Shown here piece by piece: positions 982-31,127 of a stretch of 40,333 bases of DNA (positions are counted from its first letter, which is position 1; the number at the start of each line of letters is the position of its first letter). The position numbers and the translations under genes are program-made. Under the pieces are notes generated by a model. That model ran no database searches. It had not been told where the DNA came from and was given only the letters and a program-made list of their open reading frames with translations. Origin of the DNA: a virus; IMG/VR virus record IMGVR_UViG_3300050126_000021, positions 1-40,333 of that record; one strand, given 5' to 3'.

Positions 982-2268
982 TCACAACCAGCCCCATTCT
1001 TTTAGCTGGGCCATGTCCTTGTTCACCCGCTCGCCGATGTCTGTCCGGTATTGTTTGCCGGCTACGTTTATCTTGTCAAGCAGTCTGTACACTCGCCGCC
1101 GAGCTTCGTAGGTGTAGTCGGTGGAGCGCTCACTGCCTTCGCGGACTGATCCGATGGCAGTTGCTTTCAGCAACACCCCGTCACCGGCGGCGGTCCTGTA
1201 GCCGTCGTCGTCGCGATAGATGTCAGTAAGGAACAGGTGCGGGAGAGTGCTGTCATTTATGCCGGTGACAGGCTCTCCATGGGTGTCCTTGTCAGGCTTT
1301 CTCGCCGGCCACGGCGGGACGCTGAGCCGGACAGCGATCATTGTGTCATCTGTCAGCTTGACCTGTCTCTCCGCTCCGGTGGCGATATCCCATAAGAAGT
1401 CTCCAGCTGGCTCCTCAAGCCCTTCAATAAGCGCCTCCACTGCGTCATATCCCATCCGCGATGTTGCTTCAAGAGCGTAAGCTGTATCGGGTGTGACGAT
1501 ACAGTTGACATCAAGCGGTCCACGGTAGGAGATGTGAGCGAGGAAGCCGGCGAGTTTAGCAACGGTTTCCTTGACCAGAGTATCACCGCCATTAGCGTTC
1601 ACTACCACGTTGCCCATGCAGCCGACTGTCTGGCCCAGGTTCCCCGCCAGGAACTTCTTCTCCTCGAACGTGTGGTTGAACGGGGTCAGGAACCTCCGTC
1701 CGTTGAACCATCCCTCGGTGGACACCTCTATGCCACTCACAACTCGCTGGAGAATGCCAGTCGAGTCGGGGGAGAGTTGCTTCAAGCTGCGCTGCCACAG
1801 GGTCTGGTCTTTCACCACCATTGTCTTGTTGGTCGAGATGTTGCCGTTGGGCTTGATTACCCAGCCTGTTTGCCATTCTAGATTTCCTATGATCTTGTCT
1901 GCCTCGGCGGTTGAGGAGAAGTCGTGTGTTTCGGGGATGGCTAGTCCGGCAGTGGTGAACAGGCGCATCCCTGCGGAGCGATCAAGCTCGATCTTGTCAA
2001 GGATAGGTGAGCAGCCAAGAACAGGCTTGTTGAGCTTGGCGATGTCTGGCGCGAGGCGGGCAAGGCCGACGCAATCGATGATGATTAGATCAGCTTGTCG
2101 GGCGGCAGAGAGCCAGTCTATTGGCCTGCCGCAGATGCCTTCAAGTGCGCGCGAGAAGCGCTCGTCAGCAACCCAAACATCTACTTGATTACCTTCTAGC
2201 TGCAAGCGCTGCGCGACCCCGAGGCCGTCACCTTCCTTGCCCATGACGAGGATGCGGCGACTTGTCAC
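982..2268 (-). CDS. PurD-like (glycinamide ribonucleotide synthetase-like) ATP-grasp enzyme
   Basis: Colinear by-eye similarity to PurD in these blocks: RILVMGKEGDG, ELDRS..LF...GL.IPE, GWVIKPNG, EEKKFLAGNLGQTVGCMG, YRGPLDVNC, GDGVLLKATAIG, YRTDIG. The likely start is GTG 2268, which overlaps the TerL stop as GTGA. The alternative start is ATG 2244. Confidence 0.8.
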   Translation of the reverse strand: MTSRRILVMGKEGDGLGVAQRLQLEGNQVDVWVADERFSRALEGICGRPIDWLSAARQADLIIIDCVGLARLAPDIAKLNKPVLGCSPILDKIELDRSAGMRLFTTAGLAIPETHDFSSTAEADKIIGNLEWQTGWVIKPNGNISTNKTMVVKDQTLWQRSLKQLSPDSTGILQRVVSGIEVSTEGWFNGRRFLTPFNHTFEEKKFLAGNLGQTVGCMGNVVVNANGGDTLVKETVAKLAGFLAHISYRGPLDVNCIVTPDTAYALEATSRMGYDAVEALIEGLEEPAGDFLWDIATGAERQVKLTDDTMIAVRLSVPPWPARKPDKDTHGEPVTGINDSTLPHLFLTDIYRDDDGYRTAAGDGVLLKATAIGSVREGSERSTDYTYEARRRVYRLLDKINVAGKQYRTDIGERVNKDMAQLKEWGWL

Positions 2269-3860
2269 GAGAACTTCTCTGCAATCCCGTAGCGGGTGCT
2301 GCGCTTTTTGGTTCCTTCGAAGATGTATTCCCACGAAAATGGGTTGTCGCTTGGAGTGTTCTCGTTGACAGCGGGTGGCTGGGCTGTGGCGATCGTTGCT
2401 CGCTCAACACAGATTAGCGCATGTAGTGCAGCGAATACTCGGTCGTCGAAGCAGCCCGCGTCAGCCTCGTACTTGCCGGTTTTGCTTTCAACAAAGGTGT
2501 CCAGTTCGGAGCGAAGGGTTTCGCTGTGGATGGTGTATTCGCTGGATAGCAGCCGCCTGCCGGTTCCGAGCAACAATCCCCGAGTTGTTTCGCTTGTGTA
2601 GGTTCCGAAGTTGTTGAGCTGGCTGAGGATGACTTGTGATGGTGGTTGACCGGAAGTGGTGCCGCGATGCAGGCGGTCGAGGGGGTAGGAGCCAACAAGA
2701 ACGCTGATTGTGGTAAGGCCGTGATTGTTGCGCTCTGGATTGATGTAGGCCCAGTTGAAGCGCCGGCCTAGGCCATGAGCGATGTGGCCTAGCTCGTCAG
2801 GTGCGATGTCGTTCGCGACCCATTCGGCTACTTGTTCCCTAGTATCCAGGCAGAATATCTGGATGACACTGTTGTCTCGGCCGATCCCGCCGCCGACATC
2901 GATACCGGCAACATAACCATACTCGTGGCGAGGGTGGCCCTCCAGGCACCACAGCGCCTTGCTCTCCTGCACCCAGCGAGCTACTCGCTCGTGCTTTACG
3001 ACAGGGAAGAAGCTAAAGCCGGTGGACTGGAAGCATTCATCGAAGGTACGAGGATAGTTCTCTTTGAACTTGATCAAGTCTCCATCGTAGTCGGTGAAGA
3101 TGCGCTCCCGCCTCCAGGCGAGTTGCTGCGGAGACACGCCGATGTCGAACAGCTCGGGTTCTTCTAGATCAGGATCAAGCGTCTCCACAATTCTCTCAGC
3201 CTGTTCCTGGTTGAGAGATATGGCGCAAGTGTCGAGCCCGACCCAGGAGTAGAAGAATAGCTTGAAGCCGCTTCCGTTGCGGGCTCGGACTGCTTGGCGG
3301 TGAAACCAGTTGCCGCGGCCGTTGCCAGTGGACTCGACAGTGATCTCTCCAAGCTCGGCGGCAGGGAACAATCCGCTGACTGTGTTCTCTGCGTCTGCAT
3401 AGAAAGCTGCCTCGCTGAGATGGAGATCGGTGATCGTGTCGCCTCGGCCGAAGTTGCGGCTGCCGGCGGTGCCGATCCAGAAGGTGCTGCCAGTTTCTTG
3501 GAATGAGAGCGCCTTCATATTGTCTGTGCCGATGCTTGGCCGCTTGACGCCTGGAGGGAGGCGAAGGTTGTTGACGATGAAGCGGGCGCGCTGTAGGAGA
3601 CGGGCTGTAGCGTCGGCCTCTGCACTGACAATGACGCAGCGCCGGTTCTGTTCGCCCAGGCACTTTGCCACGTAGCGGCCGATGACTAGCGTGCTGATCC
3701 CGGCGTGCTGGCGGATTTTAGTTACAAGGTTCCGCCGCGACCAGTTCGCATCTAGATCAGCCTGCTGCTCGTTCAGCTTAAAGTCGATCGCCGCCCCGAC
3801 ACGATCTACTACGCGGAAGGTATTCTCGATGACAAGGCGGTAGGGCGAGGGATGGAGCAT
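2265..3860 (-). CDS. terL: Terminase large subunit
   Basis: 531 aa with a KIRQHAGIST Walker-A-like block and DLHLSEAAF. Also has VESTGNGRGNWF, ENYPRTFDECF, nuclease-type GIDVGGG..DNSV and a C-terminal FDDRVFAAL. Confidence 0.9.
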   Translation of the reverse strand: MLHPSPYRLVIENTFRVVDRVGAAIDFKLNEQQADLDANWSRRNLVTKIRQHAGISTLVIGRYVAKCLGEQNRRCVIVSAEADATARLLQRARFIVNNLRLPPGVKRPSIGTDNMKALSFQETGSTFWIGTAGSRNFGRGDTITDLHLSEAAFYADAENTVSGLFPAAELGEITVESTGNGRGNWFHRQAVRARNGSGFKLFFYSWVGLDTCAISLNQEQAERIVETLDPDLEEPELFDIGVSPQQLAWRRERIFTDYDGDLIKFKENYPRTFDECFQSTGFSFFPVVKHERVARWVQESKALWCLEGHPRHEYGYVAGIDVGGGIGRDNSVIQIFCLDTREQVAEWVANDIAPDELGHIAHGLGRRFNWAYINPERNNHGLTTISVLVGSYPLDRLHRGTTSGQPPSQVILSQLNNFGTYTSETTRGLLLGTGRRLLSSEYTIHSETLRSELDTFVESKTGKYEADAGCFDDRVFAALHALICVERATIATAQPPAVNENTPSDNPFSWEYIFEGTKKRSTRYGIAEKFS

Positions 3861-3869
3861 TCGGGCTAG

Positions 3870-4217
3870 CTATCCCCAGGCTTCGATAGTGACATAGCAG
3901 CTTGAGGCGCAGATTAAGCTGAGCGTGTCGGCTGTGTTGGGAGCGACTAGCAAGGTCTGACCGCCGACCGGGAAGCTGGCACTGCCGTTTGTCACAGTTC
4001 CGCTTGGTACTGCTGCGTTGCCGTTGAAGTTGCCATAGGTAGGGATCACCGTCGGCGTCAGTCGGAAGAAGGTGCAGCTAGCCGGGAGGGTGTAGTTGGC
4101 GGGCGTTCCTGAGCTTAGGCTGACAACATCAACCCATGTTGGGGCGATGAGCATGTTGTCTACGGGGAAGCCTGTCCGCAGTGGCTGAGCTAGGCGACCG
4201 ACTACTGGAGTTGCCAT
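3870..4217 (-). CDS. Hypothetical beta-rich protein
   Basis: 115-aa ORF packed 10 nt upstream of terL. No signal peptide seen and no family recognised. Confidence 0.55.
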   Translation of the reverse strand: MATPVVGRLAQPLRTGFPVDNMLIAPTWVDVVSLSSGTPANYTLPASCTFFRLTPTVIPTYGNFNGNAAVPSGTVTNGSASFPVGGQTLLVAPNTADTLSLICASSCYVTIEAWG

Positions 4218-4227
4218 TGTGGTTCTC

Positions 4228-5001
4228 CTAGGGCCAACGTGCTGTTATGATAATAATTCCGGCGGCACCAGCGCCACCGGCATAGCCGCTTGCTCCAGCC
4301 GTACCGGCTGAGCCTGCTGCCCCTAGCGAATAACTGTAGGTGGCGGATAGCGATGAGATCATTACTTCAGCGCAAGCTCCCGCACCGCCGCCGCCACCGC
4401 CATAGGTAGTTGAGCCCACGCCAGCTCCACCAGAGCCGCCTGCGCCTGTATTTGGTATGCCAGCAGCACCCGCGCTGGCAGTTGTCGTCATTGGCCCCGC
4501 TCCACCGATACACGATCCCGCGCCTAACCCTCCGGATGTACCGCTCGTTACAACATTAGCATTCGTATCTGACCCGGTAGCGCCGTTCCAGCCAACAGCC
4601 GGCGACCCTGAAAGGGTGCCGCCTGCGCCGCCCGTCCCTAGCGTAGAGCCTGTGCCTTCTACTCCACCCGTTCCGCCTCCAGCGGTATAGCTGCCAAAGC
4701 TAGTATTGCCGCCATTACCGCCAGCGCTTCCGCCAGAAGTGCCACTCCCACCGCCGCCGCCACCTCCGCCAATAAATTCAACTTCAAGCGATGCAGGAAG
4801 AACGCTATTGCAGAGTGGAGTGGTGTACGTGCCAGTGCCTGAGGTGTATACTGTCCGTTGCGGCAGACATGGCACAATTTGCGATGACGGTATCCTTCGG
4901 TTGAGGTGTCCGTCCGGTGACGAGCTTAGAAAGTCTGCCTGAGCTGTAGCAGAGCAAGTTGAGAGTATTGCCCCAACAAGGAGCCAGTTGCACCACTTCA
5001 T
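4228..5001 (-). CDS. Exported glycine-rich-domain protein
   Basis: Sec-type signal peptide MKWCNWLLVGAILSTCSATAQA. The core YTSGTGTYTTP..ASLEVEFIGGGGGGGGSG and long G/A/S/T runs resemble the glycine-rich domain seen in phage fibre-like proteins. Confidence 0.7.
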   Translation of the reverse strand: MKWCNWLLVGAILSTCSATAQADFLSSSPDGHLNRRIPSSQIVPCLPQRTVYTSGTGTYTTPLCNSVLPASLEVEFIGGGGGGGGSGTSGGSAGGNGGNTSFGSYTAGGGTGGVEGTGSTLGTGGAGGTLSGSPAVGWNGATGSDTNANVVTSGTSGGLGAGSCIGGAGPMTTTASAGAAGIPNTGAGGSGGAGVGSTTYGGGGGGAGACAEVMISSLSATYSYSLGAAGSAGTAGASGYAGGAGAAGIIIITARWP

Positions 5002-5011
5002 TAGTCGGCTC

Positions 5012-5506
5012 CTAGTAGTCGTGACAGATTGCGACTATGTTGATCAGGTCGGTGCTGGTGATGGAGCTAGCGAAGGTGGCCTGGAGGGTGTCGCCGCTGG
5101 CCAGGATGAGGTAGGGGTTGCCGTCGCTGTCGAGTGGGAGGCCGGGCCAGTTGACGGCGCTCATTAGGTTCTGCGCCGGGGTGCCGCTGGCAAAGCCGGC
5201 ACTCTCGACCGAGGTTATCGCCATGCCGCCGTAGCGGACAGTCGAGCTGACGAGCTGCACGGTCAGGAGGTGGGTGGCGCTGGCGTCATTGTTGGTAGAC
5301 CAGAGTGCCTTGCAGATGCTGCCATTGGTGCCCCCGGTGTAGATGGTCTTGTAGGTGCCTGCACTGTCGGTTCCTTGAAGGAACTGGACAGTGCCGCGAT
5401 TAGGGGTTTGCGGGGTGACGTAGCTGTTCGGGCTGACAGCCGCCAGAGCAACTTGGGTGTGCAGAAGTGCTGCAATGCTAGCAGCAGCGAGCAGGCGTTT
5501 GAGCAT
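5012..5506 (-). CDS. Exported hypothetical protein
   Basis: ATG 5506 lies 7 nt after GGAGG. Signal peptide MLKRLLAAASIAALLHTQVALA. The start overlaps the upstream stop as TGATG. Confidence 0.65.
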   Translation of the reverse strand: MLKRLLAAASIAALLHTQVALAAVSPNSYVTPQTPNRGTVQFLQGTDSAGTYKTIYTGGTNGSICKALWSTNNDASATHLLTVQLVSSTVRYGGMAITSVESAGFASGTPAQNLMSAVNWPGLPLDSDGNPYLILASGDTLQATFASSITSTDLINIVAICHDY

Positions 5507-5661
5507 CACAAACCTCCAAAGTTGACGCCGGCGAGGGCGGTACTGGCACGGTTGCGGGCGGTAGTGTCGGATGTCGGAACGAATTGAGCCTGAGCAGGTG
5601 GGTCGCAGTAGTGCAACAGCCAGATGGTCAGGAGTGCTGTTACTAGGAACCACCCTCTCAT
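5506..5661 (-). CDS. Small exported protein ending in NFGGL
   Basis: ATG 5661 follows GGAGGG. The 51-aa product has signal peptide MRGWFLVTALLTIWLLHYCDPPAQA and C-terminus AGVNFGGL. Confidence 0.5.
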   Translation of the reverse strand: MRGWFLVTALLTIWLLHYCDPPAQAQFVPTSDTTARNRASTALAGVNFGGL

Positions 5662-5662
5662 C

Positions 5663-6013
5663 TCACAGCCCTCCGAAGTTTCCAACAGCGTTGATGGCAA
5701 TGTAGCGAACATGGAGTGTCGTGTTGCTGTTGGTGGAGTAGAACTCGCTTCCTAGGCTGGCGGCGATCGGGACGGCTGTTGAGTTGGTGAGGTTGGCGAT
5801 AAAGGTCATTGCACTTATTGCTGCTAGCTGGGTGACAGATAGCGAGCCGCCTAGATTGCTGAATGCGGGCTGTTTGCAGGTAGCGTTGCTTGGATAACCG
5901 TAGGCGTTGAGCCATTGGTTAGTTGGGCAGGTGCTGCTCTGCGACCACGCAGCGACAGCTACTAGTCCTAGAACTGCAACTGCGAAGCAGGTTATGGCAG
6001 CGAGGCGGCGCAT
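5663..6013 (-). CDS. Exported hypothetical protein ending in NFGGL
   Basis: 116 aa with signal peptide MRRLAAITCFAVAVLGLVAVAA. Several N-x-S/T motifs are present. The C-terminus is AVGNFGGL. Confidence 0.65.
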   Translation of the reverse strand: MRRLAAITCFAVAVLGLVAVAAWSQSSTCPTNQWLNAYGYPSNATCKQPAFSNLGGSLSVTQLAAISAMTFIANLTNSTAVPIAASLGSEFYSTNSNTTLHVRYIAINAVGNFGGL

Positions 6014-6019
6014 TGGCGG

Positions 6020-6361
6020 CTAGAATAGTGCAACGACGGGGAGGACCATGCCGACTACCTGAGCTGCGATCTGGACCGCGTTAAGGACGCTGGAGAGCCA
6101 GGCAGGAGTGCTGGCTGTGGTTGTGGCAGGGGTCGTGCCGGCGGCGAGCTGAGAGCAGAAGGCCGCGCCATAGGTGGCGATCTGGCTGACGGCCGCCGGA
6201 GCAGTTGAGGCTGTAGCGGCTGCAAGGATTGGGGCTGCGGTTGAGCAGGACTGTTGAAGGCTGGCGACAGTGGAGGCCGTCACACTGGCCACAGTTGCCG
6301 GGGTTGTGCTGGAACAGCCGACAAGGCCGAGCAGGGCGATAGAGGTGAGGAGCTTCTTCAT
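6020..6361 (-). CDS. Lipoprotein with a C-terminal transmembrane helix (unimolecular-spanin-like architecture)
   Basis: MKKLLTSIALLGLVGC carries an L-V-G-C lipobox. The middle is Ala/Thr/Ser-rich. The hydrophobic C-terminus is IAAQVVGMVLPVVALF. Confidence 0.65.
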   Translation of the reverse strand: MKKLLTSIALLGLVGCSSTTPATVASVTASTVASLQQSCSTAAPILAAATASTAPAAVSQIATYGAAFCSQLAAGTTPATTTASTPAWLSSVLNAVQIAAQVVGMVLPVVALF

Positions 6362-6372
6362 GGCAGGATGTC

Positions 6373-6702
6373 CTATGATGCAGGGGTTGGGTCAGATGGA
6401 AGATGCAGCCAGGCGCCAAGGAAGTAGGTGAGGATCATTTGCTCGGCGGCGGCGACTGCGGGGGAGGTGTCGATGTGAAAGTAGGCCAGGATCGCGGAGG
6501 CAATCACGACACCTGCGGCAGCAAGGCCAGCCGAAGTTCCTGTGACGTGGACCGGAGAACTGGTTGAAACGGATTGGTAGGTTGTCGTTGTGCCGGCGGG
6601 AGAAGTTTCCTTTGTCGTAGTGGTGCTTGGAGCGCCAGGCGACGGCGGGAGAAGGCTGGGCTGTTGGGACAGGTCTCGGCCAAGGATGCTGCTGTCTGTC
6701 AT
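6373..6702 (-). CDS. Membrane protein (holin candidate)
   Basis: 109 aa with an S/T/P-rich N-terminus. One clear hydrophobic helix, GLAAAGVVIASAILAYF, and a weaker one, MILTYFLGAWL. ATGA-type overlap with the upstream gene. Confidence 0.55.
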   Translation of the reverse strand: MTDSSILGRDLSQQPSLLPPSPGAPSTTTTKETSPAGTTTTYQSVSTSSPVHVTGTSAGLAAAGVVIASAILAYFHIDTSPAVAAAEQMILTYFLGAWLHLPSDPTPAS

Positions 6703-7031
6703 CTGTTGTGCGCCTCAATTTGGTTGGCGTGAAAGACTTGCTGGAAAGTCTGCATGCCGAGATAGCCGAGGATTGCTAGGAGGATCGCGATCAACATTCC
6801 GCGTTGCCACCAGAGGTTCTTGATATTCTGCTCGTGTTGTTCATTGCGGGCTTCCGTGATGTTATCTAGCTTCTCGTACAGTCGGCGGATGCCCTCCCGA
6901 ACTCGCTTGATCTCGCGCTTGGTCTCCCGGCGGACTTCCAGACAGTCTCGTAGGTGATGCTCGAACTGTGTCTCTATCGCTAGGGATCGAGCTGTCACGT
7001 CGGCTTGGTGCTGCGTCACTCCTTCCGGCAT
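6699..7031 (-). CDS. Coiled-coil protein with a C-terminal transmembrane anchor
   Basis: ATG 7031 lies 9 nt after AAGGAG. A charged helical N-terminal region is followed by GMLIAILLAILGYLGM. Confidence 0.65.
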   Translation of the reverse strand: MPEGVTQHQADVTARSLAIETQFEHHLRDCLEVRRETKREIKRVREGIRRLYEKLDNITEARNEQHEQNIKNLWWQRGMLIAILLAILGYLGMQTFQQVFHANQIEAHNR

Positions 7032-7560
7032 GAGGCAGGTCTCCTTGCTCGATGTTCACGTTGACGGTGAGGTTGGTCTGGAGCATTGCCGCAACTACGG
7101 CTTCGGCTGTCAGCGTGCCGTTTGCTTCCTCGGACTTACCATAAGCACCGAAGCCGGCAGCCTTGAAGAACTGCTCGCTGGCACGGAGAGCTACGTTGTT
7201 GTCTCGCATGTCATTGAGACCGCGCCTTAGGGCTGCCACGGCGAGCGGCTTCATGCTGATGAACTCGTCGTCAGCTTCCTTCAACCTCTCGGAGCGCCGG
7301 GCGATGTAGCGAGGATTGTTGCGGATCATCGACACTCGCTGCGGCGTCATGCCGAGCTTGCCTCCGATGTCAGCTGCTGTTAGTCCGCGCAGGTCGAGTG
7401 TCAGGATCATCTCCCAACGAGTGCTGATCGGGCGACCGTTGAGAGTGTTACCTACTGGCGGCCTTGGGTTGTTTGCTAGAAACCGAGCAGAGTTGTCTGG
7501 TCGCTGCTTCTGCTCATGTCTAGCGTCGAACAGCTCGCGCAGCTCACTTACCACTGACAA
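6862..7560 (-). CDS. HTH protein, putative terminase small subunit or late regulator
   Basis: HTH-like LRGLTAADIGGKLGMTPQRVSMIRNNP, then the helical block AVAALRRGLNDMRDNNVALRASEQFFKAAGFG, which is typical of small terminases. The start is TTG 7560 or GTG 7554, after AAGGAG. The last ~170 nt overlap the next gene in another frame. Confidence 0.5.
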   Translation of the reverse strand: MSVVSELRELFDARHEQKQRPDNSARFLANNPRPPVGNTLNGRPISTRWEMILTLDLRGLTAADIGGKLGMTPQRVSMIRNNPRYIARRSERLKEADDEFISMKPLAVAALRRGLNDMRDNNVALRASEQFFKAAGFGAYGKSEEANGTLTAEAVVAAMLQTNLTVNVNIEQGDLPHAGRSDAAPSRRDSSIPSDRDTVRASPTRLSGSPPGDQARDQASSGGHPPTVREAR

Positions 7561-7729
7561 GTTCCGGCTCCTTGATAGCAGGTTCCCGCGTGGCTTGCTC
7601 GGCGATCTGACGGGCAAGGTCCGGGCGCAGCCTGCCGAAATCGCTGTCGAGTAGGCGGGCAAGGAGCCTGTCGGTGGCGTTGTTGCCGATGGCCGGGCGC
7701 TGATCCATGCAGGTAATATAGGCTGTCAA
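7544..7729 (-). CDS. Small hypothetical protein, first ORF of the long late operon
   Basis: Track ORF starts at TTG 7729, with an in-frame ATG at 7708. The helical charged sequence looks protein-like. Confidence 0.4.
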   Translation of the reverse strand: MTAYITCMDQRPAIGNNATDRLLARLLDSDFGRLRPDLARQIAEQATREPAIKEPELVSGK

Positions 7730-8916: not shown

Positions 8917-9005
8917 GTGGAAGAACCAATGAGCGCACCTATCACAGCCACCTACCTCGATCCCTATGCTGGCACGCCAGCACGCGCGCTAAAAGGAGCA
9001 TGAAA

Positions 9006-9311
9006 ATGACCATCATCCTCGGCCAATTTGACGGGCAATACCGCCAAGACGAAATCGACGCGATGAACGCCAAGGTCGCCGAAGTTCTCGAAGCGCATAA
9101 CTTTGCAAAGGTCGATCTTTCCGACCGCGAGCGCGCCGAAATCGTCCGAGCGGTCGAAGGCGAAGTTTCCGGCAATTACGATCCGAACATTGGCTGGTCG
9201 GGTGTCGTCGAATTGATGCCCGCAAAGTGGGGCCGCTTCCTCGCCAGCCGTCGCGCACATCATCGACTGACGTTTTACGATCCGCGCCGCTGGCCAACGG
9301 CGCGGCGGTAA
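9006..9311 (+). CDS. Hypothetical early protein
   Basis: ATG 9006 lies 7 nt after AAGGAG (alternative ATG 9000). About 101 aa. Confidence 0.55.
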   Translation: MTIILGQFDGQYRQDEIDAMNAKVAEVLEAHNFAKVDLSDRERAEIVRAVEGEVSGNYDPNIGWSGVVELMPAKWGRFLASRRAHHRLTFYDPRRWPTARR

Positions 9312-9339
9312 AGCTATGTGTGTGTTTAGGAGGGAGATC

Positions 9340-9732
9340 ATGACGAAGCAAAATTGGCTCAATAAGCAGCTTGATCACGCTCATACGGTGGTGCAGTCGT
9401 GGAGTTCCTGGAAACGGGAGACGATCAAGTCGCAGATCGCCGACGTCAGCGGCGCGGCGGTAAACCGCCAGGAGGAAGGAATGGACTACACGATCCACGT
9501 CAACAGCGAAAGCCCGCTTGAGCGCAAGCGAACCTATATCGAAATCCTTCCTTGCATTGGTGTCGTCGAGTGCGTCATCGAACAAAGCATCTACAAAGTG
9601 TTTCAGCAACGCTATGAGCCGACTAAACTCATAATCTTCTCTCTCTCACCGGATGATGCTGAAACACTCGCCAGGCAACTTCTTGACCACGCACGCCAAG
9701 CGCGGTTAATAACTCCAAACAAACAGAGGTGA
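9340..9732 (+). CDS. Hypothetical early protein with an internal SD+ATG cassette
   Basis: ATG 9340 follows AGGAGGGAG. An in-frame copy of the 25-nt cassette places a second potential start at 9481. Confidence 0.6.
   Translation: MTKQNWLNKQLDHAHTVVQSWSSWKRETIKSQIADVSGAAVNRQEEGMDYTIHVNSESPLERKRTYIEILPCIGVVECVIEQSIYKVFQQRYEPTKLIIFSLSPDDAETLARQLLDHARQARLITPNKQR
9467..9491 (+). repeat. 25-nt translation-initiation cassette, copy 2 (inside the CDS)
   Basis: Identical to 8633-8657. Confidence 0.9.
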
Positions 9733-9736
9733 TGAG

Positions 9737-9922
9737 ATGCACTGCGACGAATGCGAGATACTGGCAATCAATGGCGTAGCCTGCCACGAGCATGGCTGTC
9801 CTCACAGCAAAGATCGCTGGGACGGTGAGCAATGGATCGCACAGCGGCGATGCTTCGCTTGCGGCTGCACGGTAGACCGAGATGATCCTTGTTGTAGCCA
9901 GGAGGTAGAAGATGACATCTAG
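9737..9922 (+). CDS. Small Cys-rich (zinc-binding-like) protein
   Basis: 61 aa with CxxC, Cx4C, CxxCxC and CC motifs and an acidic tail. Confidence 0.55.
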   Translation: MHCDECEILAINGVACHEHGCPHSKDRWDGEQWIAQRRCFACGCTVDRDDPCCSQEVEDDI

Positions 9923-10229
9923 ACCGCTTTTTGAAAAGCGCCATTTTGAATGGCTAGCTGATTGGTGTGGGATGCAGGAACGTGATGCAAGGCGCGATTA
10001 CAGCAACGCACCTATTATGTTATCCATCTCCAGCGCTAAACAGGCGGACAAGCTGGTACAGGATATGGTGAAGTATCTTTACAGCACTAACCCCAACTTC
10101 TCCCGTACGCAATTCTTGAACCGTGCTGCACAGGTTGCCAGCGGCGAGCGAGTCTGTGCACGCCCAGGAGAGAGCTACTTTCGTCGCGAGCGCAAAGTCG
10201 AGGTAGGAGAATGCCAGTCGATTTGCTAA
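9912..10229 (+). CDS. Hypothetical protein
   Basis: 105-aa ORF whose start overlaps the upstream gene end. Confidence 0.55.
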   Translation: MTSRPLFEKRHFEWLADWCGMQERDARRDYSNAPIMLSISSAKQADKLVQDMVKYLYSTNPNFSRTQFLNRAAQVASGERVCARPGESYFRRERKVEVGECQSIC

Positions 10230-10238
10230 TCAGCATCG

Positions 10239-10277
10239 CCGCTGTAGGTTGGTGCCTGTTTAGCAGCGGGTGCTTTT
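10239..10277 (+). terminator. Weak candidate intrinsic terminator
   Basis: CCGCTG (10239-10244) pairs with CAGCGG (10264-10269), followed by TTTT at 10274-10277. The loop is long. Confidence 0.25.
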
Positions 10278-10346
10278 GTAGCTTGTACCTACAACCCTTG
10301 CAACGAAACTGGTCTGCGAGATTGCGGACGCTAAGGAGAGATTGAA

Positions 10347-13786: not shown

Positions 13787-15088
13787 ATGAACGATCCAGC
13801 CACCAACGAGCTGCTAGACAAACTAGCAACCGTCGTGCAGGAGCACAATAATCCTGCTCCGCGCCAGCTCACTAGAGCTGAACAAGCTGCCAAGACCAGC
13901 CAACAAACCACGTCAGAGCTGCCTACTCAAGCAGGTCCTCTCGGCATCCGGTTTGACTTTAACGAAGGCTGCCGCATCTACCTGCCGACCCTCGCTGAAG
14001 GCTTCTATCGTGTCCGCATCCGTGACCTGGATACAGGAAACACGTTGATCGACACGGGAGATTACAAAGGCGGCTGGGTGCGATCCTCTCGCCTCTACTA
14101 CTCTCGCTTCTGCATTGAGATCAAGGTGGGCGAGGAAGGCAGCAGTGACGGAAAGACCCTGATCCTGCGCCATGACTACGATCCGACAGGCAGAGACATC
14201 CTTATCAATCTCCCTCCTGGCACCCTCGGCGACAGCATCGGCTGGTTCAGCTACGTGCCACAGTGGCTAGTTGAGCATCCAGGGTCAAAGCTAACCTGCC
14301 GCATCCAGCGTCGCATGATCCCGTTGTTCTCTCCAGGCTATCCAGATATCACCTTCCTCCCGTGCGAGGAATCGCTAGACGCCTCCAAGGGCTACTATGC
14401 GACCTATCACCTCGGCCTGTTTTACAAAGACACCGAACATGTCTGCGCGCCATGTGATCACCGTCTAGTAGGGTTACATCGCACCGCAGCCTACATCTTA
14501 GGTCTCGACCCTCTAGAACACCGGCCACGCATCCAGCCGGACTTTAAAGGTCGTCCAATCGAACAACCCTACGTCTGTATCGCCACCCAAGCCACAACTC
14601 AGCCGAAGTATTGGAACAATCCAACAGGCTGGATAGAGCTGATTGCCTGGCTAAAGGAGCAAGGCTACCGTGTCATCTGCATCGATGCAGTGAAGGCTCA
14701 TGGTGACGGTACTCACTACAACACTATCCCTTGGGGCTGTGAGGACCAGACCGGAGATCGCCCGCTCATAGAGCGAGTGCGCTGGTTGCGACATGCAGAG
14801 TTCTTTGTCGGCCTTAGTAGTGGGCTATCATGGCTTGCTTGGGCTGCCGGGTGTCCTGTTGTCCTCATCAGTGGCTTCACGCATCCAATCAATGAGTTCT
14901 ACACGCCCCACCGTGTTATAAACTACCACACCTGCAACTCCTGCTGGAACGACAGCCGGCATGATTTCGACAACAACGATTTCCTGTGGTGCCCCCGCCA
15001 CGCAGGAACAAGTCGCCAGTTCGAATGCACCCGGCTGATCACTACAGACCTAGTGAAGCGAGTTATCCAGCCACTGCTGAAACACTAA
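13787..15088 (+). CDS. TibC/Aah-family (autotransporter-type) protein O-heptosyltransferase homolog
   Basis: Near full-length block similarity recalled from TibC/Aah. Shared blocks include PTQAGP, FDFNEG, GTLGDSIGWFSY and QPYVCIATQATTQPKYWNNPTGW. Also IPWGCEDQTG..PLIERV.WL.HAEFFVGLSSGLSWLAWAAGCPVVLISGF, EFYTP.RV.N, a C-x2-C-x15-C-x11-C cluster and FECTRLIT. Confidence 0.8.
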   Translation: MNDPATNELLDKLATVVQEHNNPAPRQLTRAEQAAKTSQQTTSELPTQAGPLGIRFDFNEGCRIYLPTLAEGFYRVRIRDLDTGNTLIDTGDYKGGWVRSSRLYYSRFCIEIKVGEEGSSDGKTLILRHDYDPTGRDILINLPPGTLGDSIGWFSYVPQWLVEHPGSKLTCRIQRRMIPLFSPGYPDITFLPCEESLDASKGYYATYHLGLFYKDTEHVCAPCDHRLVGLHRTAAYILGLDPLEHRPRIQPDFKGRPIEQPYVCIATQATTQPKYWNNPTGWIELIAWLKEQGYRVICIDAVKAHGDGTHYNTIPWGCEDQTGDRPLIERVRWLRHAEFFVGLSSGLSWLAWAAGCPVVLISGFTHPINEFYTPHRVINYHTCNSCWNDSRHDFDNNDFLWCPRHAGTSRQFECTRLITTDLVKRVIQPLLKH

Positions 15089-19558: not shown

Positions 19559-19781
19559 ACACGCAATCGATCTGCGCGGGCAGCAATTCGGCCGGCTTCG
19601 CGTCATCCGACGCAGCTACTTCCCTTCTCGCCACAGGGAAATATACTGGTACTGCAAGTGCACCTGCGGGAAACTCACTCATGTTATAGGACGAGAGCTG
19701 CGCCGGGGACGTACAAAGAGCTGCGGCTGTCTACAACGTGAGTGCGCTGCTGCGGTTGGTCGTGCTAGGAAGAAAGCATGA
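19551..19781 (+). CDS. Small zinc-ribbon protein
   Basis: ATG 19551 overlaps the upstream stop. Contains GQQFGRLRVI...YWYCKCTCG...SCGCL. Confidence 0.55.
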   Translation: MPRHAIDLRGQQFGRLRVIRRSYFPSRHREIYWYCKCTCGKLTHVIGRELRRGRTKSCGCLQRECAAAVGRARKKA

Positions 19782-21481
19782 CACGCTGGATTGAAAGCGG
19801 CGATCCACGCTCCCCGGTTTGGATCATCGCCGAGGCTCCAGGCGAGGATGAAATCCGCCAGGGCCGTCCGCTTGTCGGACAGAGTGGACAAGAGCTTGAC
19901 CGCTGCCTGCGTGATGCTGGCTGGCCTCCAGATTTCCAGTTCTTTCGTACCAACATCTGCCATCAGCGCCCGCCATCCTACCAGAACAAGTATGGAAAGT
20001 GGATACATAATGATATTGAGCAATTCTTCGTCAGTCGTGCGGAAGCTAAAAGGTCCGATGTACGAGAACTACTTGGTAGGTTTCCACTTGATCCTGTCAC
20101 AGAAGGAATTGATCGACTTAGCAACCATCTTCAACACTTCCGGCCTACACTCATTATCGCTCTCGGAGGAATTTCGCTGTGGGCGTTGGGCGGTAAGGAA
20201 GGTATCCTTAAATGGAGAGGAAGTATTCTCTCTACGGAGAGTGGGATCAAAGCCATCTCCACCCTCCACCCCGCCGACATCCTCTACCAGTGGCAGCACC
20301 GGCCACTTCTAGTCCAAGACCTTCGCCGGGCGCTGCGGGAGAGCAAGTATTCCGAGATCAGGAGACCAACATGGAATTTCGTGATCGCTCCTACTATCGC
20401 TGATCTTCGAGACTGGCTGTTACCGTGTATCGAGCGCAGACAGCCACTGGTATGCGACACGGAAGGATGGGGAGTGGTAGACTGCGTTGGTTTCGCCGCC
20501 AACAGCAAAGATGCCATCTGCGTACCATTTGTCCGCGAAGCTGGACAGCTCACAACCTATTTCACGCCGGGCGATGCCGAGCAGGCAATGAGCCTGTGTA
20601 CCGCGGCCCTGCGCCAGTGTCCCGTAACGTTTCACAACGCCACCTGGGACTGTCAAGTAATCGCCCGCCGCTGGGGAATGCTGCCGAACCTAACTGATGA
20701 CACAATGGTAATGCAACACGCCTTGTTCCCCGGACTACTTGGCGGAAAGATTGATCCGACTACTGGGACAGTTGAGAAGAAAGGTTCTTCCCTCAGTCTC
20801 TCCTTCATCGCCTCAATGTATTGTGAATACTACTCTTACTGGAAAGATGACGGACGAGTACGCGGTGATAATTACGACGATGACACATACTGGAAATATA
20901 ACTGTGAGGATTGTGTACGCACATACGAGTGTAGAGAGGTTCTTACAGAGGCTCTTAGAAGTGCCGGCCTGGAGGAGCAATACAGGTTTCTGATGTCCTT
21001 GTTTGCTCCAGTCCTGTCAATGATGTTCCGAGGAATGCGCCTGGACAGGGAGCGTGTTAAAGACATCAAGAACAGCATTGTCAAACAGCGAGCTGATCAA
21101 CAACAATGGCTAGACACCGCTGTAGGCTTCCCGCTCAACGTCGGCAGTGCGCCTCAGGTCCACAGCTTGTTCTACGACGACTTGCGGCAGCAGAAAGTTC
21201 TCCACCGCTCAACCCGCAAGCCTAGTGTTGACGACACCGCGCTTGAGACCATCGCGCGCCGTCAACCTCTGCTACTGCCACTCTGCCGCACAATCCAGAA
21301 CATCCGCTCCCTCAACACCAATGAGCGGAATTTCGTGGCGGCTGCGGAGAAGGCTAAAGACCGCCTCTACACCTGCTTAAACATCACCGGCGCAGAAACA
21401 TTCCGTTTCAGCTCAAACGAGACTGCGTTCGGCGAGGGATGTAATCTACAGAACCTCACCAGACCACCGGAGGATCAATGA
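19778..21481 (+). CDS. DNA polymerase A part 1: UDG-like domain, 3'-5' exonuclease and N-terminal polymerase region
   Basis: UDG motifs are IIAEAPGEDE..GRPLVGQSG and LHPADIL. Exonuclease motifs are LVCDTEG, FHNATWDCQV and YNCEDC. The ORF ends just after the TG..RFSS....NLQNL block. Confidence 0.85.
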   Translation: MTRWIESGDPRSPVWIIAEAPGEDEIRQGRPLVGQSGQELDRCLRDAGWPPDFQFFRTNICHQRPPSYQNKYGKWIHNDIEQFFVSRAEAKRSDVRELLGRFPLDPVTEGIDRLSNHLQHFRPTLIIALGGISLWALGGKEGILKWRGSILSTESGIKAISTLHPADILYQWQHRPLLVQDLRRALRESKYSEIRRPTWNFVIAPTIADLRDWLLPCIERRQPLVCDTEGWGVVDCVGFAANSKDAICVPFVREAGQLTTYFTPGDAEQAMSLCTAALRQCPVTFHNATWDCQVIARRWGMLPNLTDDTMVMQHALFPGLLGGKIDPTTGTVEKKGSSLSLSFIASMYCEYYSYWKDDGRVRGDNYDDDTYWKYNCEDCVRTYECREVLTEALRSAGLEEQYRFLMSLFAPVLSMMFRGMRLDRERVKDIKNSIVKQRADQQQWLDTAVGFPLNVGSAPQVHSLFYDDLRQQKVLHRSTRKPSVDDTALETIARRQPLLLPLCRTIQNIRSLNTNERNFVAAAEKAKDRLYTCLNITGAETFRFSSNETAFGEGCNLQNLTRPPEDQ

Positions 21482-21678
21482 CTGCCATCAAAGATGCAGC
21501 TTTCCTAACCGACTGGGCAAGCAAAATAGCCATCAATCGACGCAGTAGCTTGCCGCTCCGTGTGGTCCGGTACATTGAAGCAATTCAGCACATGGACCAT
21601 GAGCAGCTTTGCCTGTTTCTTGCCCTGGCCCTAATCATCGGGCATTTCGAGCTGCCACCGTTTCCAGATGAGGAATAG
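21478..21678 (+). CDS. Hypothetical protein (between the polymerase halves)
   Basis: 66 aa with an ATGA overlap with polymerase part 1. Confidence 0.5.
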   Translation: MTAIKDAAFLTDWASKIAINRRSSLPLRVVRYIEAIQHMDHEQLCLFLALALIIGHFELPPFPDEE

Positions 21679-21724
21679 GAGTAAGCCAAAATGGTGCGAT
21701 ATCCCATCTACAAGGAGACAATCG

Positions 21725-22045
21725 ATGCCCCCTGAGAACCTTCCCTTTCTAGGCGCTACCAACGACGACATGATCCAGGTGCGAGACAGTCAGAGACGCC
21801 TGCTCGGTGCGATCCCGGCTGATCGCGTACCGGCGGATGCGTATAGCTACATCGATGCTGAGGGGAAAGCTTACCCTCTCCGCCTAGCCGGGCTGACCTG
21901 CATCGAGATCACAGAGCCGGTAGAGTTTGATCCTGCCAACTTCCCCGGCTTCGTGTTCTATGCCAATGGGCCAACGCTGGGCCAGCTCAAAGCCGAGGCA
22001 CAACTTATCCGGCCGGATGATCCTGACATCGGCAAAGCACCATGA
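21725..22045 (+). CDS. Hypothetical protein (between the polymerase halves)
   Basis: ATG 21725 lies 6 nt after AAGGAGA. 106 aa. Confidence 0.55.
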   Translation: MPPENLPFLGATNDDMIQVRDSQRRLLGAIPADRVPADAYSYIDAEGKAYPLRLAGLTCIEITEPVEFDPANFPGFVFYANGPTLGQLKAEAQLIRPDDPDIGKAP

Positions 22046-22239
22046 GCGGATCATTTGCCGGCTTCAAGTCTCGCAAGGGCGAGGAACTTCGGCTGGATGC
22101 TTCCCAGCTAAATCAGCGTATCGACATCATCCGGAGAAACGGGACGGTGGTGTTCAGTGTACATGAGGAGGAAGCACGCAACCTAGTTCTAGCCTTGAAG
22201 CTACACTTCGAATACAACTGCTGGGAGTGGCCGACGTGA
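22042..22239 (+). CDS. Hypothetical protein (between the polymerase halves)
   Basis: 65 aa with an ATGA overlap. Confidence 0.5.
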   Translation: MSGSFAGFKSRKGEELRLDASQLNQRIDIIRRNGTVVFSVHEEEARNLVLALKLHFEYNCWEWPT

Positions 22240-22844
22240 GCATCTTGATCATTGACACCGAGACAACTGGTGTAAACCCTCGCGAGGCGAGGATAGTTCA
22301 ACTGGCAGCCTATCACATGGGCGATGGTCCAGCATGGCCTTTTCTCGGGCAGCTCAATGAGATCATCCGGCCACAGGGCTTTATGATCCCCGAGGAGGCC
22401 ACAGCCATCCACGGGATAGATCAAGACACAGCCCTTCGCAAAGGCCGTCCACTCGCCAGCGTGCTTGATCAGCTCCATGCGCTAGCAGTCGAAGCCTTCT
22501 CCGACAATCTCGACCCCTGGCTGGTCGCGCACAATCTCAACTACGACTTCGCCGTACTCTGTCACGAGTTCGAGCGGATAGGTGCTTCCTCCTACGCCCT
22601 GACACGTCTCTTTCCCATGTGCACAATGCAAGCAATGACCCGGAGATGTAATCTCCCCGGCAAGTACCCCGGAAAGCCAAAGTGGCCTAAGCTACAGGAA
22701 GCCTACACGTTTTGCTTCCCCGAAGGGTACACCAGCACAGACATTGCTCAGGCCCACACTGCAATGGGAGATGTGCTCAAGTGCCGAGATATCTACAAAC
22801 ACGGCTGGGAGCAAGGATGGTGGGGTAGCAAGGTAGGACAGTAA
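22227..22844 (+). CDS. DnaQ/epsilon-like DEDDh 3'-5' exonuclease
   Basis: ExoI is LIIDTETTG, ExoII is HNLNYDFAVL and ExoIII is HTAMGDVLKCRDI. Starts at GTG. Confidence 0.8.
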   Translation: MADVSILIIDTETTGVNPREARIVQLAAYHMGDGPAWPFLGQLNEIIRPQGFMIPEEATAIHGIDQDTALRKGRPLASVLDQLHALAVEAFSDNLDPWLVAHNLNYDFAVLCHEFERIGASSYALTRLFPMCTMQAMTRRCNLPGKYPGKPKWPKLQEAYTFCFPEGYTSTDIAQAHTAMGDVLKCRDIYKHGWEQGWWGSKVGQ

Positions 22845-22847
22845 CCT

Positions 22848-23702
22848 GTGCCACTACCAGACCCTTATACTCTCTCCCCGCCTAACATCCGGGCAATGCT
22901 TGTGCCTGATCCGGGCTATTGCTTTGCTGAGGTGGACCTGAGTGGTGCCGACGCACAGGTAGTCGCCTGGGAAGCAGGCGCGGAGAATTTGAAGCGTAAG
23001 CTACAAGCAAGCTACGATCTACATACAGAGAATGCTTATCACATCTATGGTCGAGATATCTCGCATCCTCGCCACACTCTCCATGTCAACGGGATGACCT
23101 TCCGAGACAACGCAAAACGTGCTGTGCATGCAGCTAACTATGCTGTCAGCTACCGAACGCTGGCGCAGAGCACAAGCATCACCGAGGCCAGAGCTACCGC
23201 CTTTCTTAACTGGTGGGCCAAAACAGAAAACCCCGCAATCGGCGAGTGGCATGAGAAAACAGAATACACTCTTCGCAGTCGCAGGATGCCAGTCATCCGA
23301 AACGCCTGGGGGTTTCGAAAGACATACACTGAGCGCTACAGCCCACAGCTACTACATCAAGCTCTAGCCTGGATCGCGCAATCAACAGTCGGGGTGACGA
23401 TCAACAAGATTATGTGTAAGATTGATTGTTGCTTGGACCTGTTAGGGCAGCCTAGATGCGGAAAGTGTCTGGTCTGCCGGCTCCAGAGCCAAGGAAGATT
23501 TAACGACCTGCAACTGCAACTTCAAATCCACGACAGCGTGTTGATGCAGATACGGCTAGATTGTTGCGGGGAACTGTTCCCTCTCGTACTTGAAGCCGCC
23601 AAAGTATCGATCCCTTACGCTGATCCGCTAGTAATTCCCTGTGAACTTAAATGGTCCCCTGTTGACTTTAGCTCGATGGAGAAGTGGGATGACAGCAAGT
23701 AA
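22848..23702 (+). CDS. DNA polymerase A part 2 (motifs A, B and C)
   Basis: Motif A is VDLSGADAQVVAW, motif B is RDNAKRAVHAANYAVSY and motif C is QIHDSVL. GTG start 4 nt after the upstream stop. Confidence 0.85.
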   Translation: MPLPDPYTLSPPNIRAMLVPDPGYCFAEVDLSGADAQVVAWEAGAENLKRKLQASYDLHTENAYHIYGRDISHPRHTLHVNGMTFRDNAKRAVHAANYAVSYRTLAQSTSITEARATAFLNWWAKTENPAIGEWHEKTEYTLRSRRMPVIRNAWGFRKTYTERYSPQLLHQALAWIAQSTVGVTINKIMCKIDCCLDLLGQPRCGKCLVCRLQSQGRFNDLQLQLQIHDSVLMQIRLDCCGELFPLVLEAAKVSIPYADPLVIPCELKWSPVDFSSMEKWDDSK

Positions 23703-30596: not shown

Positions 30597-31127
30597 CTAC
30601 TGATCCCTTCGCAGGCCGAGGATTACGAGATCATACAGCCCAGGCGCGACAACGCTCATTCTTGTCCTTGTGACATCATCAGGCTGCCAGCCCCGCACGA
30701 TAGCCTTTACTAGCCTGCCCTCATGCTCGAAGCCGAGTTGCCTGGCCAGTCTCACAGCTGCCCTGTTGTCGCTAGGGATAATCGCCCACAGCTTGAGCAG
30801 CGCGCGATCAGTAAATGCTCGTCCGATCGCGTACTGGATGAACCTCTTCGCGATGATCCCTCGAAAGTTAGCGTGAAAGCCAGTATGGATTTCGGCTGCG
30901 ATAGTTGTCCGCTGCACCAGTTGCACATACCCGATGATAGTGTCGGCATAGCAGCAGGCGAGTGTCCAGGTGTGGCTATGGGCAAGATGGGCCTCGATCT
31001 GCATTGCTTCTGGCGGTGGTGCGCCGGCATCAGAGGCAGACCAGTAGATTTCCGGCTGGCGCATGAATGCAGCCATGCTAGAGATGTCGAAGTTCTCGAT
31101 AGCTTGGAAGCCTTGCGCCGGTGCCAT
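30597..31127 (-). CDS. GNAT-family N-acetyltransferase
   Basis: IGYVQL......AEIH.GF...FRG.IAKRFI.YAIGRAF......KLWA.I...N.AA.RLARQLGFEHEG matches the RimJ/RimL-like pattern. Confidence 0.75.
   Translation of the reverse strand: MAPAQGFQAIENFDISSMAAFMRQPEIYWSASDAGAPPPEAMQIEAHLAHSHTWTLACCYADTIIGYVQLVQRTTIAAEIHTGFHANFRGIIAKRFIQYAIGRAFTDRALLKLWAIIPSDNRAAVRLARQLGFEHEGRLVKAIVRGWQPDDVTRTRMSVVAPGLYDLVILGLRRDQ

Follow-up and report, generated by a model that had tools for sequence, protein, structure and literature searches.

The DNA analysed here, called the window below, is the full 40,333-nt IMG/VR virus record IMGVR_UViG_3300050126_000021, and our subject is an ATP-grasp gene at positions 982-2268 on its minus strand (read from 2268 to 982). 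This gene encodes a protein of 428 amino acids (aa) and is sandwiched by the genes for the large terminase subunit (terL) and the portal protein. An earlier note on this DNA had placed a PurD-like enzyme at this junction without stating the strand, and both the open reading frame (ORF) and its setting were confirmed. Our studies have also shown that the gene belongs to a new, large, phage-only branch of the lineage of PurD, the glycinamide ribonucleotide (GAR) synthetase of purine biosynthesis, and that this branch is misnamed purD in public annotation. The window protein itself is not a GAR synthetase or other purine enzyme.

The frame of the ATP-grasp gene runs stop to stop from 2334 to 982, with the TGA stop at 984-982, and starts are possible up to 2334. 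We chose the GTG at 2268-2266 because the N-termini of homologues match there. Forty-six aligned homologues open with M-(R/K)-I-L a few residues ahead of a conserved KEGDGLG loop, and translation from this GTG gives the N-terminus MTSRRILVMGKEGDG and the length of 428 aa. An alternative internal ATG would cost the protein its first beta-strand, and an alternative GTG at 2334 would produce a 70-nt overlap with terL. As the earlier note had proposed, and as both the sequence and the homologue N-termini bear out, the GTG start overlaps the TGA stop of terL (2267-2265) in the tetranucleotide GTGA (2265-2268, minus strand). The terL gene occupies 2265-3860 on the same strand (3860 to 2265, 531 aa) and matches phrog_2 (E = 4.4e-17). 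This overlap is not peculiar to the window phage, since 34 of 61 distinct related loci show the same geometry; in 15 more the gap is 30 nt or less. On the other side, 14 nt separate the ATP-grasp stop from the portal ATG at 968. The coding strand from terL to the portal gene was scanned and showed no terminator-like site. The ATP-grasp gene is co-transcribed with terL and very probably translationally coupled to it, in keeping with the earlier proposal that its product is made together with the packaging proteins.

The portal gene is split by the ends of the record, its 5′ part (aa 1-322) lying at 1-968 and its 3′ part (aa 323-582) at 39426-40206, both on the minus strand. Because bases 1-127 are identical to bases 40207-40333, an exact 127-bp repeat, the assembly, of 40,206 bp, is circular or circularly permuted, and the portal gene crosses its junction; rejoined, the gene encodes 582 aa. 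By itself the window portal protein gives a weak match to a portal model (phrog_1216, E = 5e-5). Its orthologues (n = 28) match Pfam SU10_portal in 16 cases and P22_portal in 12.

The similarity of the window protein to PurD is far above chance. The NCBIfam model TIGR00877 (purD) matches residues 92-415 at E = 3e-14, and a profile built from 47 family members finds PurD chains in the PDB at E values down to 7e-20. The TIGR00877 score is 52.7 bits, versus an equivalog cut-off of 288 bits, which puts the protein outside PurD proper. Pfam GARS_C scored 22.4 bits versus a cut-off of 34.8, and GARS_A and GARS_N were not reported for the window protein in the Pfam scan. An AlphaFold model made from the alignment of 47 family members had a mean predicted local distance difference test score (pLDDT) of 93.6 and a predicted template modelling score (pTM) of 0.91. 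When this model was compared with the PDB by Foldseek, ranks 1-15 were all PurD, from 11 organisms (E = 1e-27 to 1e-23), with template modelling (TM) scores of 0.70-0.79 and sequence identities of 15-19%. Biotin carboxylase, PylC, PurK and PurT came next (E = 1e-18 to 1e-16). The protein thus has the PurD four-domain N-B-A-C fold, and the block-by-block resemblance pointed out in the earlier note extends through all four domains.

The domain limits, all on the minus strand, follow from the alignment to PurD. The N domain, in PurD the acceptor-binding domain, covers about aa 1-104 (1957-2268) by hidden Markov model (HMM) alignment to PDB PurD 5vev. It is followed by the B or lid domain, about aa 105-170 (1759-1956), which carries the ATP-binding K139 and is deleted as a whole in the lid-less family members described below. 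The A domain, about aa 171-300 (1369-1758), is the ATP-grasp core with Q174, E181, E202, K204, D253, N255, E267, T269, R271, Y274 and D275, and also holds a G-x-x-x-G-C217-M-G loop. Within it, the motif NHTFEEKKF (aa 198-206; 1651-1677) corresponds to the PurD segment xxSQDHKRL and is substituted or deleted in dead variants, and LEATSRMGYDA (aa 266-276; 1441-1473) corresponds to PurD LEFNxRxGDPE. The C domain, about aa 301-428 (985-1368), was delimited from the PurD alignment, the homologues and the model. It contains PPWP, GDGVLLKATA, KQYRTDIG and a family-specific C-terminal helix that ends in LKEWGWL in the window protein.

Residues of the active site were mapped by HMM alignment to PDB PurD chains, using Aquifex aeolicus numbering for PurD and residue roles from published work (PMC8880213, PMC2978367). 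The apparatus for ATP and acyl-phosphate chemistry is kept. The window protein retains PurD E100 (Mg/ATP site) as E94, K143 (ATP) as K139, E192 (ATP) as E181, K214 (ATP/Mg) as K204, E283 (Mg ligand) as E267 and R287 (glycine carboxylate/acyl-phosphate) as R271. K103 (ATP) is represented by R97, which we counted as kept, D212 (glycine ligand) is conservatively changed to E202, and E185 aligns with Q174. Conservation was assessed in 113 aligned sequences of normal length, namely 112 cluster representatives 27-46% identical to the window protein and the window protein itself. K139, E181, E202, K204, E267 and R271 are each kept in 88-94% of them (R271 in 91%), and R97, K139, Q174 and E181 each in 88-93%. 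The five-residue catalytic set K139/E202/K204/E267/R271 is intact in 100 of the 113, and therefore catalysis matters in most lineages, including that of the window.

The acceptor side is different. Arg13 and Glu14 in the GGREHA motif of human GAR synthetase, the proposed ligands of phosphoribosylamine and the acyl-phosphate (PMC2978367), become D14 and G15 in the EGDGLG of the window protein; the Arg position is D in 70% and E in 10% of the aligned sequences. The GPEAPL helix (human residues 75-80), which caps the sulfate/phosphate site, is absent after G68 in the family; in the 5vev alignment it appears as an insertion in PurD relative to the family profile directly after that residue. The Arg of GGRVL (human R385, a conserved acceptor-site Arg) is lost in GDGVL, and no basic residue is present anywhere in T359-L367, a segment whose register is ambiguous by two positions. 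Only half of the glycine-binding set of four survives: E202 is a conservative change and R271 is retained, while D290 and E292 (from the GDPE motif, ligands of the amino group) have become Y274 and A276. The Asn of the ATP-grasp E-x-N, a Mg ligand, is T269 (T in 82% and S in 8% of the family), and the B-loop GLAAGK, which lies over ATP in PurD, reads GNISTxKT. Newly conserved relative to PurD are D65, D253, N255, Y274, D275 and C217, of which D253 and N255 are located where PurT has an extra Mg ligand. In this alignment every phosphoribosylamine-binding element examined is replaced or deleted, and the basic acceptor-site residues of PurD seem to have been swapped for acidic or neutral ones (D14, D65, D363). 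The window copy therefore combines a complete ATP/acyl-phosphate apparatus with a rebuilt acceptor site. The two refuting checks set out in the earlier note thus both spoke for its call: ATP-grasp and PurD models match the protein, and the PurD substrate residues are not conserved, so that it is no ordinary metabolic purD.

A word-indexed search returned 575 relatives of the window protein, of which the best 120 are 47-100% identical to it, and many are encoded on contigs of 40-46 kb. The JGI product name of the window protein and of many homologues is phosphoribosylamine--glycine ligase (purD). An exhaustive profile search gave at least 833 clusters (50% identity) at E ≤ 1e-30, a level that no PDB PurD would reach because the best of them scores 74.5 bits against the family profile. 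When 50,697 GenBank phage records were searched with tblastn, four weak matches were obtained and no family member was found in a cultured phage. The best match is an unannotated ORF of the uncultured phage MW202796 (MW202796.1 42137-43441; positions 9001-10305 of our locus L082, L-numbers denoting related loci), a full-length homologue (26.5% identity, 99% coverage) that carries no coding-sequence annotation. No PHROGs family matches the window protein, and BFVD gave no full-length structural match, its best viral structures having a TM score of 0.44. A scan of GTDB (185,579 species, one genome each) yielded 7 loci, all on contigs of metagenome-assembled genomes and several also carrying phage terL, portal or capsid genes; no cellular homologue in an informative operon was obtained from it. 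The family is restricted to phage contigs. No description of it was found in the literature on ATP-grasp or PurD proteins with terminase, portal, capsid or intein.

The phages concerned are P22/Mx8-like podoviruses, and the window genome carries an SU10-type adaptor and a nozzle; its capsid protein is at most 30% identical to those of Mx8, Mx9, ppBjS10J-1 and BUCT555. In IMG/VR loci recovered with the ATP-grasp protein as bait, the order terL, ATP-grasp gene, portal gene and, further on, major capsid protein gene is kept down to 34-40% identity. The ATP-grasp protein is typically conserved as well as or better than terL and portal. L009 is an example: compared with their window counterparts, its proteins are 51% (terL), 62% (ATP-grasp protein), 54% (portal) and 79% (capsid protein) identical. 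With the portal as bait, loci with 1.5 kb or more of upstream sequence numbered 68, some of them duplicates from different samples, and 66 carried the gene in the terL-portal slot. In most loci its stop lies 0-30 nt from the portal start. The ATP-grasp gene is thus a near-universal late gene of a large uncultured clade and not a one-off insertion.

More remote relatives qualify this picture. Homologues 29-37% identical to the window protein come from genomes of the same layout, with a late operon that converges on DUF3987 and UDG-PolA (uracil-DNA glycosylase and DNA polymerase A) genes. In these genomes the ATP-grasp gene either is the last late gene, after an ORF of 1000-1560 aa, or comes after the nozzle and tail fibre genes, and in MW202796 it closes the structural operon. 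Since the exact slot varies in these remoter clades, it is the placement in the late module that is constant. The gene order pointed out in the earlier note therefore holds for 66 of the 68 portal-anchored loci, and in remoter clades the gene sits at other points of the late operon. Long ORFs of 1000-1560 aa lie directly upstream of the ATP-grasp homologue in L068, L069, L070, L073, L075, L076 and L080, and in most of these loci the two are found at the end of the late operon. The long ORFs had no Pfam match, and weak PHROG matches were seen in L069 alone (DNA methyltransferase families). To judge solely by their position, they may encode internal or ejection proteins.

Contrary to the earlier note, the junction between terL and portal is not an invariant one in this phage group. 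In MW202489 (MW202489.1 2598-5561; L092) the slot holds three unrelated genes, one annotated as a PhoD-like phosphatase, and in Bradyrhizobium phage ppBjS10J-1 it is empty. The three MW202489 genes were tested as remote homologues of the ATP-grasp gene and none is one. In these Mx8/P22-like podoviruses, then, the junction is a place where the cargo varies. We also looked for a conserved partner ORF or a precursor of the kind used for peptides that are made on the ribosome and then modified post-translationally (RiPPs). Small ORFs between the ATP-grasp and portal genes proved sporadic across loci and common only to a few near-identical or closely related ones. A graspetide (RiPP) ligase was rejected for want of a conserved adjacent precursor-peptide gene. 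The longer homologues, inspected for fusion partners, contain only inteins or unassigned tails.

Intein/LAGLIDADG insertions are present in five homologues of 747-880 aa. Four of them (P0244, P0256, P0266 and L079:5995-8634) have the insertion where LE(x)T meets (S/C/T)RxGY, at the S270 position of the window protein (LEAT/S270), and the fifth (P0245) has it between NTG and C217. A catalytic loop is interrupted in either case. The literature searched contained no report of an intein in such a phage gene.

At the same time, part of the family has lost its catalytic residues. Among 65 complete and distinct slot proteins, 51 keep K139/E202/K204/E267/R271. Five lack the entire B domain together with the catalytic set, and nine are near full length and have lost the E202/K204 segment, E267, R271, PPWP and YRxD. 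These 14 dead proteins (about 22%) are all encoded by intact ORFs and retain conserved non-catalytic regions, namely the N domain (KxGxGLGxAxRLxxEGHxV), EGWFNG..PF, GYRGP, EGLxEPxxDFL and the C-terminal helix. Intact and conserved as they are, they must be selected for something besides catalysis. The family thus has a catalysis-independent role as well, given that about 22% of slot proteins have no catalytic residues or lid and are nonetheless conserved. Among the top 150 cluster representatives, 15 likewise have no lid. The lid-less variants are about 340-375 aa long (loci L119, L120, L135, L152 and L060; cluster representatives P0129, P0134, P0149, P0171 and P0193), and in them the B domain is swapped for a short linker and the catalytic residues are substituted. 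Those with a known genomic context still have their genes in the terL-portal slot.

A pair of loci from IMG/VR sample 3300012964 bears on whether the gene is needed. L136 and L137 are collinear, with capsid proteins 92.5%, terL 78% and portal proteins 76% identical. L136 has an intact ATP-grasp gene and L137 has none between terL and portal, on a 12-kb contig that leaves room for relocation elsewhere. L137 also has an extra 379-aa ORF upstream of terL. Since the slot is without the gene in so close a relative (92.5% capsid protein identity), the ATP-grasp gene is most likely an accessory and not indispensable for building the virion. Its near-universal presence in the slot, the inteins in its catalytic loops and the repeated conversion to pseudoenzymes together indicate an important late function.

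Based on these observations, we favor the view, to which we would assign a probability of roughly 0.45, that the protein is a phage-specific offshoot of PurD, removed from purine metabolism and built into the late virion-making operon, that works as an amide ligase on a macromolecule of the virion module. In the window copy, MgATP would be bound under the B-domain lid, and its phosphate would go to a small carboxylate, probably of amino-acid type, that R271, E202 and K204 keep in place. The acyl group would then pass to an amine sitting in the remodelled pocket between the N and C domains. This acceptor amine should be uncharged or positively charged (a lysine side chain would be one candidate), because the pocket has traded the phosphate-binding arginines of PurD for the acidic D14, D65 and D363. 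The partner would be a macromolecule of the head-assembly, packaging or virion set, bound in all lineages and covalently modified only in the catalytic ones. A macromolecular partner seems more likely than a metabolite because dead versions are retained in place, with their N domain, core surfaces and C-terminal helix kept. The earlier suggestion of an amide-forming ligase that modifies something late was accordingly incomplete; it suits the catalytic set of the window copy and leaves aside the roughly 22% of slot proteins that are dead.

Several points weigh against this proposal. The protein-substrate step leans on the argument that a dead small-molecule enzyme would be lost. The loss in L137 and the dead variants could equally mean a function directed at the host and not at the virion, and neither a conserved small ORF nor a fused domain indicates a partner. 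The replacement of the E-x-N Asn by T269 and the failure to keep GLAAGK make catalytic competence uncertain. The case for an acidic pocket comes from alignment to PurD structures, in which the GGRVL register may be off by up to two positions. A more specific version, which we offer as speculation, is that the protein is an inbuilt though optional part of the head/portal module in a very large clade of uncultured podoviruses and has alternated, over evolutionary time, between a working ATP-dependent amide ligase and a pseudoenzyme with no lid, the active form acylating a lysine of the portal, capsid or an ejection protein or entering the host as a virion-borne effector. If true, this would be the first ATP-grasp system of post-translational modification, or the first PurD-derived virion effector, for tailed phages. 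The placement in the late operon fits either outcome, whether the protein modifies a head, portal or ejection protein inside the cell that makes it or is packaged as an effector and acts in the next host.

The second of these possibilities can also be taken by itself, as an unlikely account. The protein would be made late because it is loaded in the head or bound near the portal or internal proteins; it would be ejected with the DNA and directed at a host target as the next infection begins, by ligation in catalytic lineages and by binding alone in dead ones, perhaps in the manner of the gammaherpesvirus vFGARAT proteins (PMC5691659, PMC5811070), which set a precedent. The gene always lies within late structural operons, and in the remoter clade it directly follows the 1000-1560-aa ORF at the operon end, the usual place of internal and ejection proteins in podoviruses. 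It is dispensable for an almost identical virion module (L136/L137), and active and dead forms coexist as they do among viral pseudoenzymes. However, no MuF-like or other known head-targeting domain was found, and the giant neighbouring ORFs have no recognisable domains and owe the ejection label to their position. The proposed modification of a virion macromolecule has also to be set against a late ligase for small molecules, which would couple an amino acid, or a small acid of another kind, with a free amine (for instance that of a polyamine or amino sugar, or one linked to a nucleotide) and so supply a product for packaging or lysis, such as a DNA counter-ion or an analogue of the cell wall or a precursor. 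The structural neighbours (PurD, PurK, PurT, biotin carboxylase, PylC and Ddl) all use small molecules, R271 and E202 are kept as for an amino-acid-type carboxylate, and an acidic acceptor pocket would fit a polyamine-like amine. We consider this improbable, as dead and lid-less slot proteins that remain conserved are hard to square with a metabolic enzyme, partner genes for biosynthesis are missing from the genome, and the tight, conserved linkage to terL and portal is unexpected for a metabolite pathway. Still less probable is a purely non-catalytic assembly or packaging factor, in which the PurD fold would be a structural or chaperone-like partner of the portal or terminase and the conserved "catalytic" residues would serve at most for nucleotide binding or regulation. 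The lid-less and dead variants that stay in the slot with a conserved N domain and C-terminal helix, and the short distance to the portal start in most loci, speak for such a factor. The catalytic set intact in 100 of 113 diverse sequences indicates chemistry, though, the catalytic loops are intein targets, and L137 lacks the gene despite virion genes near-identical to those of L136, which argues against an obligatory role in assembly.

Two further explanations are very unlikely. A ligase that places an acyl or aminoacyl group on a modified base during or shortly before packaging would suit a gene adjoining the packaging genes, and phages do repurpose purine-pathway paralogues for DNA chemistry, as with PurZ. 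Against it, the window showed no genes for modifying bases (hydroxymethylase, kinase, aminotransferase), the acceptor pocket is predicted to be acidic and thus unfavourable for DNA, and dead variants are retained. The least probable explanation is the one implied by the annotation, that is, an ordinary auxiliary metabolic gene encoding a divergent yet functional GAR synthetase that raises purine synthesis in the host. The JGI name and the PurD fold point that way. However, the score falls short of the equivalog cut-off by a wide measure (52.7 versus 288 bits), and R13/E14 of GGREHA, the phosphate-capping helix, the GGRVL Arg and the D and E of GDPE are lost. Neither purF nor any other purine-biosynthesis gene was found among the window ORFs scanned, in agreement with the earlier note. 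Phosphoribosylamine is short-lived (half-life 5 s at 37 °C), and PurF is believed to pass it on directly (PMC2978367). With the location among late genes and the dead variants in the family also against it, this explanation fails five residue-level tests and the test of context.

Taken together, these analyses have consequences for annotation. Since pipelines label the family purD, it can be miscounted in viromes as a purine auxiliary metabolic gene, which the residue-level tests say it is not. The family is also a rare example of an enzyme fold fixed within the terL-portal core of a phage lineage, and its series from active through dead to lid-less forms offers natural material on how viruses repurpose metabolic enzymes.

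Several other features of the window are recorded here, and none of the genes in question could be tied to the ATP-grasp gene. Positions 13787-15088 (plus strand) encode a TibC-like N-terminal domain and a family-9 glycosyltransferase (GT9) heptosyltransferase domain. The TibC-like heptosyltransferase family includes protein (autotransporter) heptosyltransferases, and the product is a possible glycosyltransferase for virion or host proteins. A GNAT acetyltransferase gene (30597-31127, minus strand) directly follows the gene for the nozzle or "stabilization" protein (31165-33024), an order also seen in MW202489 and ppBjS10J-1 (by annotation or position) and in MW202796. A functional link between the acetyltransferase and the ATP-grasp protein was rejected, as the nozzle-GNAT pair is present in ppBjS10J-1 and MW202489, which have no ATP-grasp gene in the regions examined. 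No GNAT gene was found near the ATP-grasp gene in related loci, and a direct search for GNAT loci gave one close relative only. A split family A DNA polymerase is encoded at 19778-23702 (plus strand). Its N-terminal part, fused to a UDG-like domain, lies at 19778-21481 and its C-terminal part at 22848-23702; between the two is a separate gene for an RNase T-type exonuclease (22227-22844). Upstream of terL, at 3870-7662 (minus strand), about 3 kb are taken up by genes for membrane, lipoprotein or signal-peptide proteins, none with a family match. They include a 257-aa secreted glycine-rich protein (4228-5001). Further upstream, the ORF at 6862-7662 has a helix-turn-helix-like segment, perhaps that of a small terminase.

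Among known systems, PurD (EC 6.3.4.13; PDB 2yw2, 2ys6, 1gso, 2qk4) is closest in architecture. It shares the N-B-A-C order of domains, the ATP-binding Lys and Glu, the Mg-binding Glu, the carboxylate Arg, the equivalents of D212-K214 and the C-terminal YRxDIG. The differences are an identity of less than one fifth and changes in GGREHA, the GPEAPL helix, the GGRVL Arg, the D and E of GDPE, the E-x-N Asn and the GLAAGK loop. The family, moreover, adds invariant D65, D253, N255, Y274 and C217 and a C-terminal helix, and it is confined to phages and late operons, has no purine partners and includes dead and lid-less members. The same chemistry, in which ATP and a carboxylate form an acyl-phosphate that is attacked by an amine, is expected of PurK, PurT, biotin carboxylase, PylC and D-Ala-D-Ala ligase. 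PylC, which accepts the epsilon-amine of lysine, stood at Foldseek ranks 18 and 24 for the window model. Biotin-carboxylase-like ligases fall about ten orders of magnitude behind PurD in Foldseek E value, and none is part of a virion module. Phage PurZ, a paralogue of PurA that serves the synthesis of 2-aminoadenine DNA, resembles our family in that a purine enzyme has a phage-encoded paralogue whose substrate specificity has changed. The substrate of PurZ is still a nucleotide, however, and its gene lies among those for replication and nucleotide metabolism, whereas here all nucleotide-sugar-phosphate ligands are lost and the gene is late.

Phage-encoded ATP-grasp proteins are also known from LUZ24-like and related phages, where the gene belongs to a cassette with amidoligase and glutamine amidotransferase genes and its product is predicted to be a peptide or amide ligase (PMC3890496). 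That cassette lies among early or replication genes, and its ATP-grasp protein is RimK-like, about 290 aa long and accompanied by partner enzymes. The window protein had no Pfam or NCBIfam match to RimK or TTL, and viral RimK/TTL-like models reached TM scores of 0.34-0.37 against it. The vFGARAT tegument proteins of gammaherpesviruses (ORF75, BNRF1) are captured homologues of a purine enzyme that are late, non-metabolic and in part pseudoenzymes (PMC5691659, PMC5811070). Their ancestor is PurL and not PurD, and they belong to another virus realm, so that the likeness is one of analogy and not of homology. Virion incorporation has been shown for them, whereas for our family it is suggested by late-operon position, and the window copy has a complete catalytic set. 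By this analogy, the vFGARAT proteins would be the nearest conceptual precedent for a PurD-derived protein that is packaged as an effector.

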